DNA from: Promethearchaeota archaeon
Lineage (GTDB): Archaea; Asgardarchaeota; Lokiarchaeia; Sigyniarchaeales; SOKP01
DNA: 64,000 bases
Direction: 5' to 3'
Assembly: GCA_016840085.1 (NCBI GenBank)
Contig: JAEOTA010000043.1
Coordinates: forward strand, 1 to 64,000
This document shows positions 1-8,035 of this stretch, piece by piece; position 1 is the stretch's first letter, and the number at the start of each line of letters is the position of its first letter. The position numbers and the translations under genes were made by a program. The notes below the pieces were generated by a model, which was not told where the DNA came from, did no database searches, and saw nothing but the letters and a program-made list of their open reading frames with translations.

Positions 1-327
1 GAAGGAATTGCATCTCTTTCTAAATTAGTAAAAAAACAACTTGTAGAGTTTGATTTTCAAATTCTTGAAGGTGATGCAGTGCTAATAGATTATCATATAC
101 CGCCTAATGGTGGTGGTGGCGGTGGTGAGGAAGGTTGTTTTGGTGGTGATCCTCATTGGGATTGTGAATGGTGTGTGGTGCTTTGTGAGGTGTCCCTTGT
201 CGTCGGATGTTTTATTGGGTGCGCCCCTTATCCTCCATCATGCTTTGCATGCTTAGAAATGATGATGTTAGTGGAATTGCTACATATCGGTTGTTACGTA
301 GTATGCATACTTATTGATTGTTGTTAA
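1..327 (+). CDS. C-terminal part of a Cys-rich, halocin C8-like/saposin-like putative toxin precursor (5' end outside window)
   Basis: Frame is open from base 1 (EGIASLSKLVKKQLVEFDFQILEGDAVLIDYHIPPN), then a poly-Gly linker and a hydrophobic tip with 12 Cys ending C-x4-CC. Confidence 0.6.
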   Translation, partial: EGIASLSKLVKKQLVEFDFQILEGDAVLIDYHIPPNGGGGGGEEGCFGGDPHWDCEWCVVLCEVSLVVGCFIGCAPYPPSCFACLEMMMLVELLHIGCYVVCILIDCC

Positions 328-353
328 TGATATGATTATAAGGAGCTGATATT

Positions 354-821
354 ATGAATGAAAAGGAAATTAATGTGAAAGAAAGGAATACTGAAGAAAA
401 GATTAAGAATTTCTGGAAAAATTTTAAAGAAAATTGGTTATGGGTTACAATCGGGATTTATATAGGTATAACATCAATAGGCTGGATCATGTATTTCAGA
501 GGGTGTTTTTCTTTAATAGAAGTAGTTCTATACACTTTCTTAGCTTCCATTCTTCTATTCAGTATCTACTATATCAGCAAATTAAAAAGCGGAACTATTT
601 TTAGAATATTATGGATACTCGGGGGAGCATTTGTTATAGGAGTATGGATATTCTTTTCCGTCAATTATATTCTTTTTGCTTCGTCTTGGGCTCCTTTTCA
701 TGAGATTGACGTCACATTGCGAAGACTTTTTACCATCTTGGTTTTTTTATTATCATATTGTGGAGCAGCATACATAATGTATAGAATAGAAAAAAAAATT
801 AAATGGAGATTTTTTTTATAA
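354..821 (+). CDS. Multi-pass membrane protein, candidate immunity protein
   Basis: About 4 hydrophobic helices; starts 26 nt after the Cys-rich gene; paralog of 1557-2063. Confidence 0.55.
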   Translation: MNEKEINVKERNTEEKIKNFWKNFKENWLWVTIGIYIGITSIGWIMYFRGCFSLIEVVLYTFLASILLFSIYYISKLKSGTIFRILWILGGAFVIGVWIFFSVNYILFASSWAPFHEIDVTLRRLFTILVFLLSYCGAAYIMYRIEKKIKWRFFL

Positions 822-1338
822 TCTTAGAAATTATAATTATTTTTTTTTTTTACTTGTTTTCTAAATCGAATTTAATCAATAGGAAATACCATTTGTTACT
901 CGCTTATAAGGGTTTAATAATTAGTAATAGGATTTTAGAACTTAATAATGAGATTTAGTATTTTGATATATAAAGCAAGAAAATATTTTTAAAAAATAAG
1001 AATCTTTTTATCAAGATTTAGAGTTTAAATCCCAAAATTTAAAATTATAAAAAATTGACCATTGAATTTTTTTTTGAAATATAACTTCCTAAGTCGGAGT
1101 AAACAATTTTAGCATTTAAAAAATATTTAAATAAACAGACTATTACTAGTTACTGTTAAGTCGCTGAATTTTATTTAAATATGATTAAACAAAGAAATTG
1201 GAAAAAATCTACAATAAAAAAATTTTGTTCGATATATATTCAATAAATTTTCATTTGTAAACATTGATTAAGACCATTATTTGTAATTCAAAAAGTTATT
1301 TGTCTCAGATTTCGTTTTTTAATAAATATTAAAAATAA

Positions 1339-1530
1339 TTATTCAAAAGAAATAATCCTGAAGAAGATTGTATTACGTGTGAAATTGCTGCTGGTGTAAT
1401 TTCAATTATAATATGTTTAGCTGTAATATGGTGGGTTCCAGGTGCTGGATTGTTTTGTGTTGAGTTATTAGAGATATACCATATAACTGGAAGTACTCAT
1501 ATTACTTGTCAGATTGTTGGTTGTTGTTAA
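1339..1530 (+). pseudogene. Start-less orphan Cys-rich tip (second cassette)
   Basis: Open frame after TAA at 1336-1338: LFKRNNPEEDCITCEIAAGVISIIICLAVIWWVPGAGLFCVELLEIYHITGSTHITCQIVGCC*; Cys spacing shared with 1-327. Confidence 0.75.
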
Positions 1531-1556
1531 TGAAATTTTCGTAAATAGGTTATTGT

Positions 1557-2063
1557 ATGATTATAAAGGAAAAGAATACAAAGGAAGATAATAAAGGAAA
1601 GAATAAAAATGAAAGCCATGATAATTTTTGGAAAAGATTTAATGAAAAGTGGTTATGGTTTAATATAGGCGGTTATATCTTAGGAACAATATTATTCTGG
1701 TGGTTATTTTTTATCGGAATTATAAGCTTGATAACAACAGTTTTTTTAACAATTTTGAACCTACTAATCATACCAATGATTTATTATCTTTTCAATTATT
1801 TTAGAATGTCAAAACATCAACAACTCATTACTAAAATAGTATTAGTAGGGTTTGGTGGATTAGGATTCGGTGGTATATTGTGGTTTTTTCTCGGCTATTT
1901 CCTTATTAATTCTCCTTGGGCACCCTTACAAGATTTACCTCCTGTACTAAGAGGTAGACTTTTTCTCCTACTTCTGGTTCCATCATGTGGACTTGCAGGA
2001 TATATAATGTATAGAATAGGCAAAAAAAGAGAATGGAGACCACCTTCACATTTAACAAATTAA
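1557..2063 (+). CDS. Multi-pass membrane protein, candidate immunity protein (paralog of 354-821)
   Basis: Shared motifs NFWKxFxExWLW, WAP and YIMYRIxKK; again 26 nt after the tip stop codon. Confidence 0.55.
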   Translation: MIIKEKNTKEDNKGKNKNESHDNFWKRFNEKWLWFNIGGYILGTILFWWLFFIGIISLITTVFLTILNLLIIPMIYYLFNYFRMSKHQQLITKIVLVGFGGLGFGGILWFFLGYFLINSPWAPLQDLPPVLRGRLFLLLLVPSCGLAGYIMYRIGKKREWRPPSHLTN

Positions 2064-2830: not shown

Positions 2831-3439
2831 CTATACATCTGGAAATTCTAAAGATTTAGCTTTAGTAGCTCCCATCATTTGTCCCATACCACCCGATGCT
2901 TGAGTTTGAAGCTTCAAAAGTCTCTGAATTAACGTATTAAGCCCTAAAGAACATAGGAAATACCAGGCAGTAAAATTTATCCAAATTGTATTACGTGCTT
3001 CAATGAAATCTCCTATCAGTGGAACATCATTAGCATGCATGGCAGAGAGCGCTACAGGACTCCCTCCAAAAACCACGGTATTTAAAACAGAAAAAATTAT
3101 AATCATAGGAAGAAATGTAATACACGTTGGTTTTAATCTCTGCATTGCCATCCCTTGTTGCGATTTTTTAAACATCGCATCTTTTCGCTCCCATTTTTTT
3201 CTGAGTTTACTATACCGCTCTGGATCCACCTCAGCTAATTCAATAATTTTTTCTTTCTCTTCTTGATGAGCCTTGATTTGTTTTTGTTTTCTCGCTAGCT
3301 CCTCAGTATCAACTAACCATTTTGTTAATATCGTAGAAATTAATGCTGTTGTCAAGGCTAAAAGAAGCACAAAAATCATAGATCCTGGAGGAGTGCTTAT
3401 CAGATCTAAAAAATCAATATTAAAGATTAAAAATATCAT
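2831..3439 (-). CDS. EMC3/TMCO1 (DUF106, Oxa1-superfamily) membrane insertase
   Basis: TM1, coiled coil, KPxxITxLPM motif and WYFLCS motif; near secY. Confidence 0.85.
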   Translation of the reverse strand: MIFLIFNIDFLDLISTPPGSMIFVLLLALTTALISTILTKWLVDTEELARKQKQIKAHQEEKEKIIELAEVDPERYSKLRKKWERKDAMFKKSQQGMAMQRLKPTCITFLPMIIIFSVLNTVVFGGSPVALSAMHANDVPLIGDFIEARNTIWINFTAWYFLCSLGLNTLIQRLLKLQTQASGGMGQMMGATKAKSLEFPDV

Positions 3440-3606: not shown

Positions 3607-4785
3607 TTATTTCTTAGTTTTTTTTTTCATTTCTTCAATACATGTAATTAATATTTTCATTAGTTTTTCCTTTTCTATCAGTCTGTTTTTTTGTATGTAC
3701 AGTAGAACTTTTTGGATTATAACTAAGAATGAATAATCTAAATAATCTTCTGATTTTGATTTTAATATCCAAGAGTTGACTTCTCTCATTTTTTTGATTT
3801 TATTGGCTGTATTGATAATTAAATGAACAAATTCAGGCATTAGGAGGTATTTATTGTCTTCATTTAGCGATGTATTTTCATGTAGAATAAGTTCGCCACA
3901 TGTGTTATATTCAAGTATTTCTTCACTAAGTTCAGAACATTTTAGAATACAATCTAGAAGTACCATTTCAGCAGGTAAATTTTCCTCATGAATGTTAATT
4001 CTTCTATTAAATTCGAGAATAAATTGGGTTTTTAGATTAGGTCTATTGGTTAAGATTTCTGTTAAGATTGGATCGATGATTTCTCTAAAGAAAACCTTGT
4101 TATACCTTGAATAATATTGATCAAGATAAACTTCATAATTCAATTCTGAGATGGAAGGCAATTGCACATTGAAAGTATTGAATAATTCTTTAATGATTGC
4201 TTCATTAATCATAGAAATGGGAATATTTAGTTTATTTTTAACAATGTTCCAGATGTATTGGTAAAAATCATTCTCCATTCTATCAGCTTGGTACTGATAT
4301 AAATAGAATATACGCAAGTCATCTAATTTTATTCTCTTTGCTAAATCTATATCAATTTCCACCATATCCAATAGTTCTAAATAAATCTCATAGATATCCT
4401 TAAAAAAATCGTTGAAATCTACGTCTATAAGCTTCTCTAGTATTGATTTATTGTTAATAAGTTTATAGTATATATTTCTTGCTTCTTCATCCCCAAAATA
4501 AGCAAGCTCATGAAGAAGAGGAAATGCAAAAATAAAATTATTAAGATTAATGTCATAATCATTTTCATACCAAGATCTCAGTCTTTCAATAGTGGAATCG
4601 AATTCACTTCCCCTACGTGTATATTCCATTAATTCTAATTCATTAACACAAATTAAAGTATATTTATTTACTATTTTGACCGAAAGTAAATGGTTGATAT
4701 AATACTCTTTGGTAACTTCTCTGTTCCCTATTTCCCTCTTTCTTAATCCTGTTGTTCCTAAATACTTAAATTCGTTAAAGTCCAT
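3607..4785 (-). CDS. Hypothetical protein
   Basis: 392-aa ORF; WYENDY...AFPLLxxL...GD segment resembles a domain I recall from Lokiarchaeal proteins (unverified). Confidence 0.5.
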   Translation of the reverse strand: MDFNEFKYLGTTGLRKREIGNREVTKEYYINHLLSVKIVNKYTLICVNELELMEYTRRGSEFDSTIERLRSWYENDYDINLNNFIFAFPLLHELAYFGDEEARNIYYKLINNKSILEKLIDVDFNDFFKDIYEIYLELLDMVEIDIDLAKRIKLDDLRIFYLYQYQADRMENDFYQYIWNIVKNKLNIPISMINEAIIKELFNTFNVQLPSISELNYEVYLDQYYSRYNKVFFREIIDPILTEILTNRPNLKTQFILEFNRRINIHEENLPAEMVLLDCILKCSELSEEILEYNTCGELILHENTSLNEDNKYLLMPEFVHLIINTANKIKKMREVNSWILKSKSEDYLDYSFLVIIQKVLLYIQKNRLIEKEKLMKILITCIEEMKKKTKK

Positions 4786-4994: not shown

Positions 4995-6479
4995 CTAATC
5001 CATTCCAAGAAAGCCTCTTAGGCCGGGGTATTGTTGCGCAGCGAACTCTTTACTGATGGTTTCAGCATATGAATGAATAATTCCAATCGATATTAATAAA
5101 CCCGTTCCGCTTGTTAATGCACCTAAACTATCTGCAAAGAAGCTTAACACAGCAATAATGATCCCGTTTAATATTATCAGCGTTGGGATATATCTTTTCA
5201 ATATTCTTTCTATGATTTTCTCAGAGCTTCTAAACCCTGGTACCTGCATTTTTGAGTCAATTATTTGCCCTGCTATATCTCTTGGGCTTAAACCACTTAC
5301 TTCGACCCAAACACGGCCGAGCATTATGCATAGGACTATAAAAATCATTAAATATATAACAGCTCTACCAGGATCTCCTAATAACTGTTCTATACCCAAT
5401 GGAGGGGTAAGTAAATATATCAAACCGCCCGTTGGTATCAGTTGCCCTCCCATACCTTCTCCAGCTGATTGCGATTCAAACACCCCAATTAAATTGAGCC
5501 AGAAATCAGGGATAAGCCCACCGTTAGTTGCACGCAAGGCGGCGTCAGGACCAGCAAGTAATTGCCCGAAGAATAGAAAATTTGCATATAGAGCATTGAC
5601 TAATATCACAGGAATATTCGAAACGTACAGGAGTTTCATTGGATATTTTCCCTTAAATCCTCTATACCCACGATATGCAAGCGGAATTTCGATCCGTGTT
5701 GATTCAAACCAAATAACTACAAATAAAATAATAACAGTAGTAAATAAACCTAGCAGCGATGGAAGCCGTTGTCTCAAAAATAATGTGCCTAAATGTGTGT
5801 CAGGTTTATCATCAAATAAAACAGAAAAGAAGGCGATAATAATTCCACGTGGAACTCCATCTTCAGCTTGAATAAAACTGAAACTATTCCAAAAAATTTG
5901 ACCTGCAACACCCGCAGCTATAAATAATGAAACTCCACTCCCAAGCCCCCAACCTTTTTGAAGTAATTCATCAAGAAGGATAATTACTATACCAGCGAAA
6001 AGTAATTGCACAAATATGAATACAGCATCTAGAATCCCTATTCCTTCCGCACCTCCTAACCGACCAAATGCACCACCTACTAAATATGCTAAAGCATTGA
6101 AAATGGTTAAAAAAACTGCCAATACCTTCTGGGCTCCACTGAACATAGCTCTATCATAAGGATCTGCCATATTTACATTTATGATCTTTGACCCTAAAAG
6201 TAATTGCATAATAAGGCCTGCTGTTACAATTGGTCCTATACCGAGCTCTGTAAGCGTTCCTCTCTGGCTTGCTAGAATTACCCTTAACCAATAAAAATAA
6301 TCTGTTGATTGCTCAAGCTGAACACCATATAGAGGAATGTTAGACATAATTAAGTAGATTATAAGGACAACAGCGGTCCAAATGAACTTTTCTTTGAAAG
6401 AAACTTCCCGCTGTGGCTGTTTTATTTCTGGCATTGCCCGAACAAAAGGAGAAAAGAACTTAAGAAATCTTCCGGCCAT
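4995..6479 (-). CDS. secY: Preprotein translocase subunit SecY/Sec61alpha
   Basis: GTLTELGIGPIVTAGLIMQLL, KGWGLGSGVSLFIA, YPMKLLYVSNIPVIL and SGTGLL motifs. Confidence 0.98.
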   Translation of the reverse strand: MAGRFLKFFSPFVRAMPEIKQPQREVSFKEKFIWTAVVLIIYLIMSNIPLYGVQLEQSTDYFYWLRVILASQRGTLTELGIGPIVTAGLIMQLLLGSKIINVNMADPYDRAMFSGAQKVLAVFLTIFNALAYLVGGAFGRLGGAEGIGILDAVFIFVQLLFAGIVIILLDELLQKGWGLGSGVSLFIAAGVAGQIFWNSFSFIQAEDGVPRGIIIAFFSVLFDDKPDTHLGTLFLRQRLPSLLGLFTTVIILFVVIWFESTRIEIPLAYRGYRGFKGKYPMKLLYVSNIPVILVNALYANFLFFGQLLAGPDAALRATNGGLIPDFWLNLIGVFESQSAGEGMGGQLIPTGGLIYLLTPPLGIEQLLGDPGRAVIYLMIFIVLCIMLGRVWVEVSGLSPRDIAGQIIDSKMQVPGFRSSEKIIERILKRYIPTLIILNGIIIAVLSFFADSLGALTSGTGLLISIGIIHSYAETISKEFAAQQYPGLRGFLGMD

Positions 6480-7132: not shown

Positions 7133-8035
7133 TTATCCAAATAAACCTCCAATCCCCACTTCTTCATCGATCTCTTCTTCAGACTCCTTTTCATCAACTT
7201 TTACATCTTCTTCTACAGGGGCTTTTATTCCTTCTCCAAAGATTACAGTATTCATAATATTAAATTCAGATACAGCTTTACGAATATATTCTTCTTTCAT
7301 CTCTTCCAAATAAAACGGCATTTCAAAAAGAATTCCAAGAGCTTGCCTGTAGGCTGTTGCAAAATCAGTTTTAAATTGTTCCATATCCATGTATAGAATT
7401 TCTTCAGGAATTATTTCCCCATCACTCCATGCAAAATGGATCTTAATCAATGACTGTATTGGAGCAATTCCTAATTTCTTCAATACTGCTGCTTGTTTAA
7501 CGTTAACAAAATCACCTGTTTTATGAGTCCTAGTATTTTCTCTTATCCATATTGTATCATTTTGAATTCTTGTTGGTAATCGTAAGATCATATTCAATTC
7601 ACTTATGACTTGTCCTGTTGGCAAACCTGTATCACCTGCGGGTACCCAAATGTCTACTGGTGTAATTTCATTTGGTTTTGCTGCAACCATCCATTCATTT
7701 TCGAGAAAAACCTTTTTTAGATCAAATAAATCAAAATTACTAAATACTAGACTTGATTGACCAGGGATGTGCGTTGCTAATTCATCCAAATTTGACTTTT
7801 TTGATTCCTTTTTAAATTGCTCTATTGCTCGAAGTTGAAGAGATTTTTTTGACATTCTAAATACTGCTTCTCCTCTTAAAAGTTTACGCATAGATTGAAT
7901 TTGCTGATCTTGAATGTGAGCGACTTCGATTACAGCAACATTTTTATAATTTTTAAATAAATCCACTAGATGTTCAATTTCATCCAATTTCCATTGTGGT
8001 ATATGTTTTTTTTTAATCAACTTCTTACACCTCAA
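7133..8035 (-). CDS. rplP0: Ribosomal protein uL10/P0
   Basis: IPQWK start, VPAGDTGLP motif, acidic tail GIGGLFG. Confidence 0.95.
   Translation of the reverse strand: MRCKKLIKKKHIPQWKLDEIEHLVDLFKNYKNVAVIEVAHIQDQQIQSMRKLLRGEAVFRMSKKSLQLRAIEQFKKESKKSNLDELATHIPGQSSLVFSNFDLFDLKKVFLENEWMVAAKPNEITPVDIWVPAGDTGLPTGQVISELNMILRLPTRIQNDTIWIRENTRTHKTGDFVNVKQAAVLKKLGIAPIQSLIKIHFAWSDGEIIPEEILYMDMEQFKTDFATAYRQALGILFEMPFYLEEMKEEYIRKAVSEFNIMNTVIFGEGIKAPVEEDVKVDEKESEEEIDEEVGIGGLFG

Follow-up and report, generated by a model that had tools for sequence, protein, structure and literature searches.

The window considered here is a 64,000-nucleotide (nt) stretch of a Promethearchaeota archaeon, an Asgard archaeon of the Lokiarchaeia type, the first 64 kb of contig JAEOTA010000043.1 (C35) of assembly GCA_016840085.1, a genome of 4.68 Mb in 89 contigs; at its left edge lies a two-unit cassette in which coding sequences for Cys-rich hydrophobic protein tails (tip1 and tip2) are each followed by a gene for a small partner protein with four transmembrane (4-TM) segments (mem1 and mem2). 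Unit 1 starts with an open 3' gene end of 108 codons (bases 1-324, plus strand), closed by the stops TAA TGA at 325-330, whose product passes from a conserved stretch through PPNGGGGGGEEG into a 63-residue hydrophobic tail with 12 Cys and a terminal CC. The features of the cassette, with lengths in amino acids (aa), are the following:

1-90, plus strand, last 30 codons of a conserved precursor body, up to a family-wide junction (…LSKLVKKQLVEFDFQILEGDAVLID)
91-135, plus strand, linker YHIPPNGGGGGGEEG, Gly-rich in the window and poly-Pro in relatives
136-327, plus strand, tip1, a class-A Cys-rich hydrophobic tail with 12 Cys, stop at 325-327, CFGGDPHWD in front
354-821, plus strand, mem1, a 4-TM partner of 155 aa from the clade that follows class-A tails, AGGAG upstream
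822-1338, no strand, AT-rich non-coding spacer of ~0.5 kb
1339-1530, plus strand, orphan tip2, a class-B tail with an open frame at 1339-1527
1557-2063, plus strand, mem2, a 4-TM partner of 168 aa from the clade that follows class-B tails, C-terminus …GKKREWRPPSHL

A first-pass annotation had already described two units with a start-less second tail, paralogous membrane partners, common Cys positions, the same ends and equal 26-nt gaps, and each of these points was verified in the sequence. The DNA of both tips ends in TGTTGTTAATGA, from which exactly 26 nt lead to the partner ATG in either unit; numbered from the common DC, both tips keep C2, C5, C17, P25, C31, E33 and the final C-x4-CC. In particular, tip1 has the frame C-x2-C-x3-C-x7-C-x3-C-x6-C-x2-C-x13-C-x3-C-x4-CC, a grand average of hydropathy (GRAVY) of 1.55, on a par with a TM hairpin, and two hydrophobic stretches; tip2 retains all six invariant class-B Cys and the terminal CC, its frame contains no ATG, GTG or TTG, and stops lie just upstream. 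The pairwise similarity of the two tips is weak (24% identity, expectation value (E) 0.003) and is not due to chance, since a tail profile run on the source genome recovers both (E 6e-25 and 2e-22, respectively) and nothing else there. The partners mem1 and mem2 are 39% identical (E 1e-22), each with three to four hydrophobic stretches where the family alignment shows four, and tblastn of tails and partners found no paralogues in the rest of the source genome. The spacer showed no homology in comparison with the precursor body and is 98-100% identical to its counterpart on contig C74 of a related genome, G076.

Extension of contig C35 to the left, suggested in the first-pass annotation as the way to the precursor N-terminus and its signal peptide, is impossible because the window begins at base 1 of that contig; the N-terminal codons, with a Sec-type signal, were recovered instead from contig C32 of the same genome. 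This 37-kb contig carries at its two ends the outward-facing 5' parts (first 352-354 codons) of two precursor genes:

C32 2-1057, minus strand, precursor 5' part
C32 36174-37235, plus strand, precursor 5' part

Both copies encode an export signal and the rhodanese loop CKSGYRS, and the rhodanese part of the precursor gene lies beyond the window. The edges of C32 are identical over their last 127 nt, as if the assembler had stopped at a repeat, and the window begins 5 codons further on, a gap that is spanned by the database protein P0021. Given the two 5' parts, the genome has two or more precursor copies, and it was this repeat that interrupted the assembly; the assembly of G076 breaks at nearly the same precursor position. 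Either C32 copy could join the window gene, the sequence giving no choice between them.

The full-length architecture is provided by two relatives of the same genus, L034 (genome G061, 'Loki_b32') and L033 (G063), of about 470 aa, in which a Sec-type signal, a rhodanese domain, a region of ~240 residues, a Gly/Pro linker and the Cys-rich tail follow one another. The N-termini of both relatives and of the C32 copies begin with a Lys-rich n-region that leads through a hydrophobic core to an A-x-A-like site (ALA-Q in L033 and L034), and none contains the RR motif of the twin-arginine (Tat) pathway. The rhodanese domain (PF00581) is matched at E 2e-16 in L034 and 1e-17 in L033 with an intact CKSGYRS loop, and its active site is nearly invariant across the family; the ~240-residue middle region of the two proteins had no match in Pfam or NCBIfam. 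An AlphaFold2 model of a relative, built on a 41-sequence alignment (mean predicted local distance difference test score, pLDDT, 79.5), comprises the rhodanese, a domain in which two long helices pack on a long antiparallel beta-sheet, a disordered linker (pLDDT below 50) and a helical tail, whose helices at 416-440, 444-457 and 462-468 have pLDDT values of 73-84; the tail is thus predicted to be a helical hairpin. Foldseek with the full model returned rhodaneses at the top and recognised nothing else, and with a separate model of middle domain and tail it gave no match at E below 1e-3; the best score of a wide VIA-align search with the same part (Z 5.3) lies within background, and the ESM Atlas gave no usable lead for either the partner or the middle domain. 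The likeness of the middle domain to lipid-binding sheet-and-helix folds or to TipC2 is weak and was not taken as evidence.

A search with L034 returned 480 proteins (E below 1e-5), and in about 100 of them the match extends over both the rhodanese and the middle domain. These relatives come from Bathyarchaeia, Thermoprotei, Nezhaarchaeota and Njordarchaeota, to which a genome scan adds metagenome-assembled genomes (MAGs) of Sulfolobales and Crenarchaeota, and the records of their genomes also include MAGs of Promethearchaeota / Lokiarchaeota. In the 75 full-length members, which come from Asgard, Bathyarchaeia and Thermoprotei-type MAGs, the body closes in the junction LSKLVKKQL.EYD..IL.S.A.L.D, the motif with which bases 1-90 of the window end, after which an optional linker leads into a hydrophobic tail of 55-75 residues with 6-15 Cys. 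Tips exchangeable between bodies, as the first-pass annotation had supposed, are what the comparison of bodies and tails supports: the 75 bodies with their conserved junction bear ~31 tail clusters by global-identity clustering, an approximate figure, single-linkage BLAST clustering having been rejected as Cys and Pro composition fused all tails. How similar two tails are depends hardly at all on how similar their bodies are (r = 0.19 between the two identities); in fact, the tails fall in different clusters in 272 of the 317 pairs with a body identity of 65% or more, and one tail cluster can sit on bodies that are only 40% identical.

The two tips of the window belong to different tail classes. 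Class A, which includes tip1, has a 10-Cys frame conserved from Loki to Bathyarchaeia, with Cys spaced at i, i+3, i+7, i+15 and i+19 on each helix; we infer an interhelical disulfide ladder, because this spacing would place five Cys on one face per helix. Class B, which includes tip2, is characterized by six invariant Cys and the motifs HITGSTYI.CQ..GCC, and in full-length genes its tails are preceded by CFGGDPxWDCxWC, as tip1 is. A class-A profile run against 1.84 billion representatives and a class-B profile run against longer proteins matched, with few exceptions, the precursor body type or its fragments, and no small leader-type genes bearing tails were found in these searches. The exceptions are P0211, with a degenerate tail fragment on an unrelated N-terminus, and P0210 and P0214, with class-A tails on divergent bodies that lack the rhodanese domain and apparently keep the beta-rich middle domain; the tail therefore seems bound more closely to the middle domain than to the enzyme. 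The distribution is patchy, clear tails being present in 8 of the 135 genomes searched of the taxonomic family.

The membrane partners form a family of about 80 clusters in a large database, all unnamed. They are characterized by a charged N-terminus with KNFW..FK.NWLW, four hydrophobic segments, an APWAPL loop and a basic C-terminal Y.MYRIGKKR.WRP; in the alignment only W, P and G residues are near-invariant, and there are no conserved Cys or catalytic-type residues. A gene of this family follows every class-A and class-B tail examined in Loki, and also the class-A tails of Bathyarchaeia (L069-L072). Tails ending in CCMCAEYMGWIDCP are followed in L074 and L075 by unrelated proteins of 60-126 aa made of 2-TM units, and in L073 by two 4-TM proteins ending …LGDKVWKRLGIY, which the mem profile missed and which are therefore judged to be distant mem relatives at most. 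In a maximum-likelihood tree of 24 mem proteins, in which 9 of the 21 inner branches are unresolved, mem1 groups with the partners of class-A tails and mem2 falls in a …RPPSHL clade tied to class-B tails or their remnants; the tail-class labels require 5 changes on this tree, as compared with a mean of 12.4 when shuffled, and none of 200 shuffles was as low. The link between a tail and its membrane partner that had been proposed from the window alone is thus recovered at the level of the family. Tandem partner genes devoid of tails also occur, two upstream of the G061 precursor (L034:5884-7202) and two after an orphan tail on contig C54 of G076 (L036:8342-9405), each pair consisting of one A-type and one B-type partner.

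Unit 2 is not an isolated case. The DNA homology of tip2 to full-length class-B genes begins at ~1356-1368, exactly at the PEEDC junction motif, and orphan tails accompanied by partners recur in G157 (L059:3955-4125) and on contig C54 of G076 (L036:8160-8324, then two mem genes), in agreement with the first-pass view of tip2. Other orphans are truncated at the 5' side and keep a 3'-terminal piece of the body (L071:7336-7761, L068:7337-7846, L075:6594-7364), a form shared by many short database entries that begin within the last helices of the body; across several genera and phyla the arrangement is found again. Partner genes can also be found alone, as expected from the idea of retained immunity genes put forward with the first annotation: mem genes occur in G050 (two copies), G040, G048 and G042, genomes 87-92% complete, in which a profile of middle domain and tail had no match, the same profile finding its targets in the positive controls G061, G063, G084 and G000. 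Close relatives of mem2 stand alone in G061 and G001. In the latter (L022, contig C453, ~700-2300) a clean 1.6-kb deletion fuses precursor codon ~65 to the last ~105 nt of the partner, and is followed by a tip2 remnant (…STHITCQIVGCC) and then by an intact B-type partner.

The comparison with contig C74 of G076 (L035) also indicates recombination at the locus. Identity to the window is 84-93% over positions 1-200, 99-100% over 201-1500 and 66-81% over 1501-2100, and beyond ~2100 the sequences are unalignable; this mosaic places recombination breakpoints inside tip1 and at the border between tip2 and mem2. The tail tip2 is nearly identical in the two genomes, the G076 copy having one Cys-to-Tyr change, but the partner gene behind it was either exchanged or subject to strong divergence.

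To the right of the cassette the window contains housekeeping genes, together with a 392-aa gene at 3607-4785 that had no match in Pfam:

2831-3439, minus strand, EMC3/TMCO1-like (DUF106) membrane insertase
4995-6479, minus strand, SecY
7136-7999, minus strand, ribosomal protein L10/P0

Bacterial polymorphic toxins such as CdiA-CT/CdiI, Rhs and MafB come with orphan cassettes, and a general description of such systems is reportedly due to Zhang, Aravind and colleagues in 2012. The archaeal family resembles them in the conserved exported body with its junction motif, in the hypervariable C-terminal modules and in the small cognate gene directly downstream, as well as in the 5'-truncated orphans that retain junction homology, the partner-only loci and the mosaic recombination. 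It differs from them in its archaeal host, in a body made of a rhodanese and a beta-rich domain, in modules that are Cys-rich hydrophobic hairpins of 55-75 residues and not enzymes, and in partners that are multi-TM and not soluble. As to delivery, a Sec-type signal is the only feature seen; Pfam and NCBIfam give the rhodanese only, with no part of the type V, VI or VII secretion systems (T5SS/T6SS/T7SS) or of Rhs/YD proteins, and the neighbouring genes are housekeeping. In pore-forming colicins a hydrophobic helical hairpin enters the membrane, and an immunity protein of 3-4 TM segments is thought to recognise it in the bilayer. The colicins, with their hairpin and small multi-TM partner, are a mechanistic analogue only, since the archaeal tails are much smaller and Cys-laddered, colicin-type receptor-binding or translocation domains are missing and no relation of sequence or fold was detected.

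Halocin C8 was named in the first-pass annotation for comparison. The precursor ProC8 of Natrinema (HalI + HalC8; TIGR04449) has an N-terminal part with immunity function, a Tat signal and a peptide of ~76 aa with about 10 Cys (bioRxiv 10.64898/2026.07.27.741052). The present family is similar in that a hydrophobic Cys-rich peptide of comparable size ends a larger exported precursor whose N-terminal part has a function of its own, and differs in its Sec-like signal and in a separate membrane gene as the presumed immunity factor; moreover, the halR gene and the ATP-binding cassette (ABC) transporters of the halC8 locus were not seen around the cassette. Neither window tail had a family in NCBIfam, TIGR04449 included, at E up to 10, and 41 full-length relatives searched at E up to 0.01 gave rhodanese families only and no halocin, Pfam likewise giving rhodanese only. 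Homology to halocin C8 is thus not supported, nor is the comparison with saposins, for which neither Foldseek nor VIA-align gave a fold match; of the reading of inter-strain antagonism as first put forward, the exchangeable tips, linked partners, orphans and retained partners are borne out. Overlooked at that stage were the composition of the body, a rhodanese enzyme with a beta-rich domain, and the internal position of the Cys-rich segment in some relatives. A C-terminal sorting signal of the PGF-CTERM / archaeosortase type, which would have a short signature motif, one TM helix and a basic tail, was rejected, the tails having two to three helices, 7-14 Cys, a CC or CP end and no basic end, and CTERM models had no match in the NCBIfam scans of the window tails and the 41 relatives. 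Among exported rhodaneses, the periplasmic PspE acts in disulfide formation and can take over part of the role of DsbA in E. coli (Chng et al. 2012, as cited in PMC5403849); it shares with the present body an exported single-Cys rhodanese domain alongside a Cys-rich substrate, and differs from it in that the archaeal rhodanese and its presumed substrate form one polypeptide and that some tail-bearing relatives have no rhodanese.

The exported body, the junction with its swappable modules, the small gene that tracks the module, the orphans and the partner-only loci together make up the layout of a polymorphic toxin/immunity system, and the locus is read here, with a probability of roughly 0.55, as a polymorphic, membrane-targeting system of this kind. 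According to this reading the tail would be exported on the body, insert in the membrane as a disulfide-zipped hairpin and damage the membranes of competitors devoid of the matching partner, while the partner would shield the producer by binding the hairpin inside the bilayer, as multi-TM immunity proteins do with pore-forming colicins. A role in cis is conceivable for the rhodanese, for the middle domain or for the two together, either in oxidising or persulfidating the Cys ladder or in keeping the tail soluble until its release; were the tail cleaved off, candidate sites would be the Asp conserved at the junction and an Asp-Pro that occurs frequently. Unit 1 would then be an expressed toxin-partner pair and unit 2 a spare tail that stays silent next to a partner gene that probably works, orphan cassettes of this type serving as a reserve for tail replacement via recombination at the conserved junction. 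More tentatively, the tails may represent a class of archaeal antimicrobial peptides widespread in Asgard, Bathyarchaeia and Thermoprotei-type archaea, namely disulfide- or persulfide-laddered hairpins that are armed or folded in cis by a secreted rhodanese, passed between strains as cassettes and countered, each by a membrane protein that recognises it, in the bilayer.

Several observations weigh against a toxin. Toxicity, tail release and protection by the partner are all inferred from sequence, and no known toxin domain and no colicin or bacteriocin model of Pfam or NCBIfam matches the family. Both tail classes of the window share one partner family whose tree is poorly resolved, and the shuffle test overstates the association of tails and partners because relatives share labels. 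In P0048, P0081, P0104 and P0042 the Cys-rich segment lies inside the chain, with PKD-like, PPC-like, discoidin-like or Hint domains behind it, the last being PF05203 and starting with Cys, an arrangement that fits a terminal toxin less well than an anchor formed by an out-in-out membrane hairpin; an extra CBM-like domain lies between body and tail in P0077 and P0107. The near invariance of the rhodanese site implies that the body is probably an enzyme itself and not merely a carrier. Lastly, precursors of the L078 type have no small same-strand partner downstream, the nearest mem-like gene being an opposite-strand fusion with a winged-helix domain (DUF7347/HTH_20, ArsR-like). Next to Bathyarchaeia precursors, such a winged helix and a membrane domain share one protein in L078 (7158-7898, minus strand), in L107 (3969-4805, plus strand) and in P0198, the membrane domain being mem-like in L078 and P0198; the winged-helix/mem-like fusion hints at signalling, perhaps by a tail-sensing regulator tethered to the membrane.

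The strongest competing explanation, which we nevertheless hold to be unlikely, is that the tail is a variable membrane anchor and the 4-TM protein its partner: a cell-surface sulfurtransferase would be held in the membrane of the producing cell through a two-helix hairpin rich in Cys, the partner would be a docking subunit, an assembly factor or part of a thiol/sulfur relay, and the diversity of the tails would result from relaxed constraint and co-evolution of two interacting membrane pieces, with no warfare. An anchor of this kind agrees with the rhodanese loop that hardly varies, with a tail that would be the sole membrane-spanning part once the signal is cleaved, and with the internal segments flanked on both sides by extracellular domains; unrelated tails on near-identical bodies, start-less and truncated spare tails with their own partners, partners in genomes without any body match and the tails of P0210 and P0214 that do without a rhodanese are, however, difficult to reconcile with it. 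A relay function has a precedent in the NCBIfam rhodanese/DsbD-like fusion TsoB, in which a rhodanese is tied to membrane thiol transfer, but the DsbD part of that model is not matched and the partner has no conserved Cys; in fact, a TsoB-type relay, which would couple a rhodanese to DsbD/CcdA-type TM segments bearing catalytic Cys pairs, was rejected on its own account, the match being limited to positions 38-166 of the 572-position model, the rhodanese part, and the tails being two-helix hairpins of many unrelated sequences.

A ligand/receptor pair for self-recognition or cell-to-cell signalling, in which cognate receptors in the membrane would read variable tails as identity tags and some receptors would carry a fused DNA-binding domain, appears improbable to a greater degree than the anchor. 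The winged-helix fusions next to Bathyarchaeia precursors speak for it, polymorphism with cognate pairing is typical of recognition systems too, and several partner genes per locus (L034, L036) could broaden recognition; nevertheless, the variable part is embedded in the membrane and is not an exposed surface, the Loki partners have no output domain, genomes with partners only match immunity retention at least equally, and regulator-immunity fusions are conceivable in toxin loci too. It is very improbable, finally, that unit 2 is an artefact or decaying junk, that is, a dead duplicate whose likeness to a toxin cassette is accidental: the missing start codon, the Cys-to-Tyr change in the G076 copy and the visibly degraded G001 locus would accord with decay, whereas the complete set of invariant class-B Cys in tip2, an intact mem2 with close intact relatives in four genomes and a layout that recurs across genera and phyla already contradict it.

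No paper was found in the literature searched that describes the rhodanese/Cys-rich-tail family or that ties a rhodanese to archaeocins or polymorphic toxins in this sense. New here are the split of the precursor between C32 and C35 with two copies, the start of the orphan exactly at the junction, the G076 mosaic, the G001 deletion genotype and the A-type and B-type partner clades. In two or more genomes the assembly is interrupted at this locus by the duplication of the body, so that counts of the family from MAGs are probably too low.

To our knowledge, almost nothing has been learned about competition among Asgard and other uncultured sediment archaea, and we know of very few characterised archaeal toxins. 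If the tails are toxins, the family would supply small natural membrane peptides with Cys ladders by the dozen, all paired with their antidotes, and a testable example in which an exported sulfurtransferase works on its own C-terminus; conflict between strains could, moreover, be read clearly from the genes of the prokaryotes most closely related to eukaryotes. If they are anchors or identity tags, specific intramembrane helix-helix recognition could still be studied in the cognate pairs with unusual ease.

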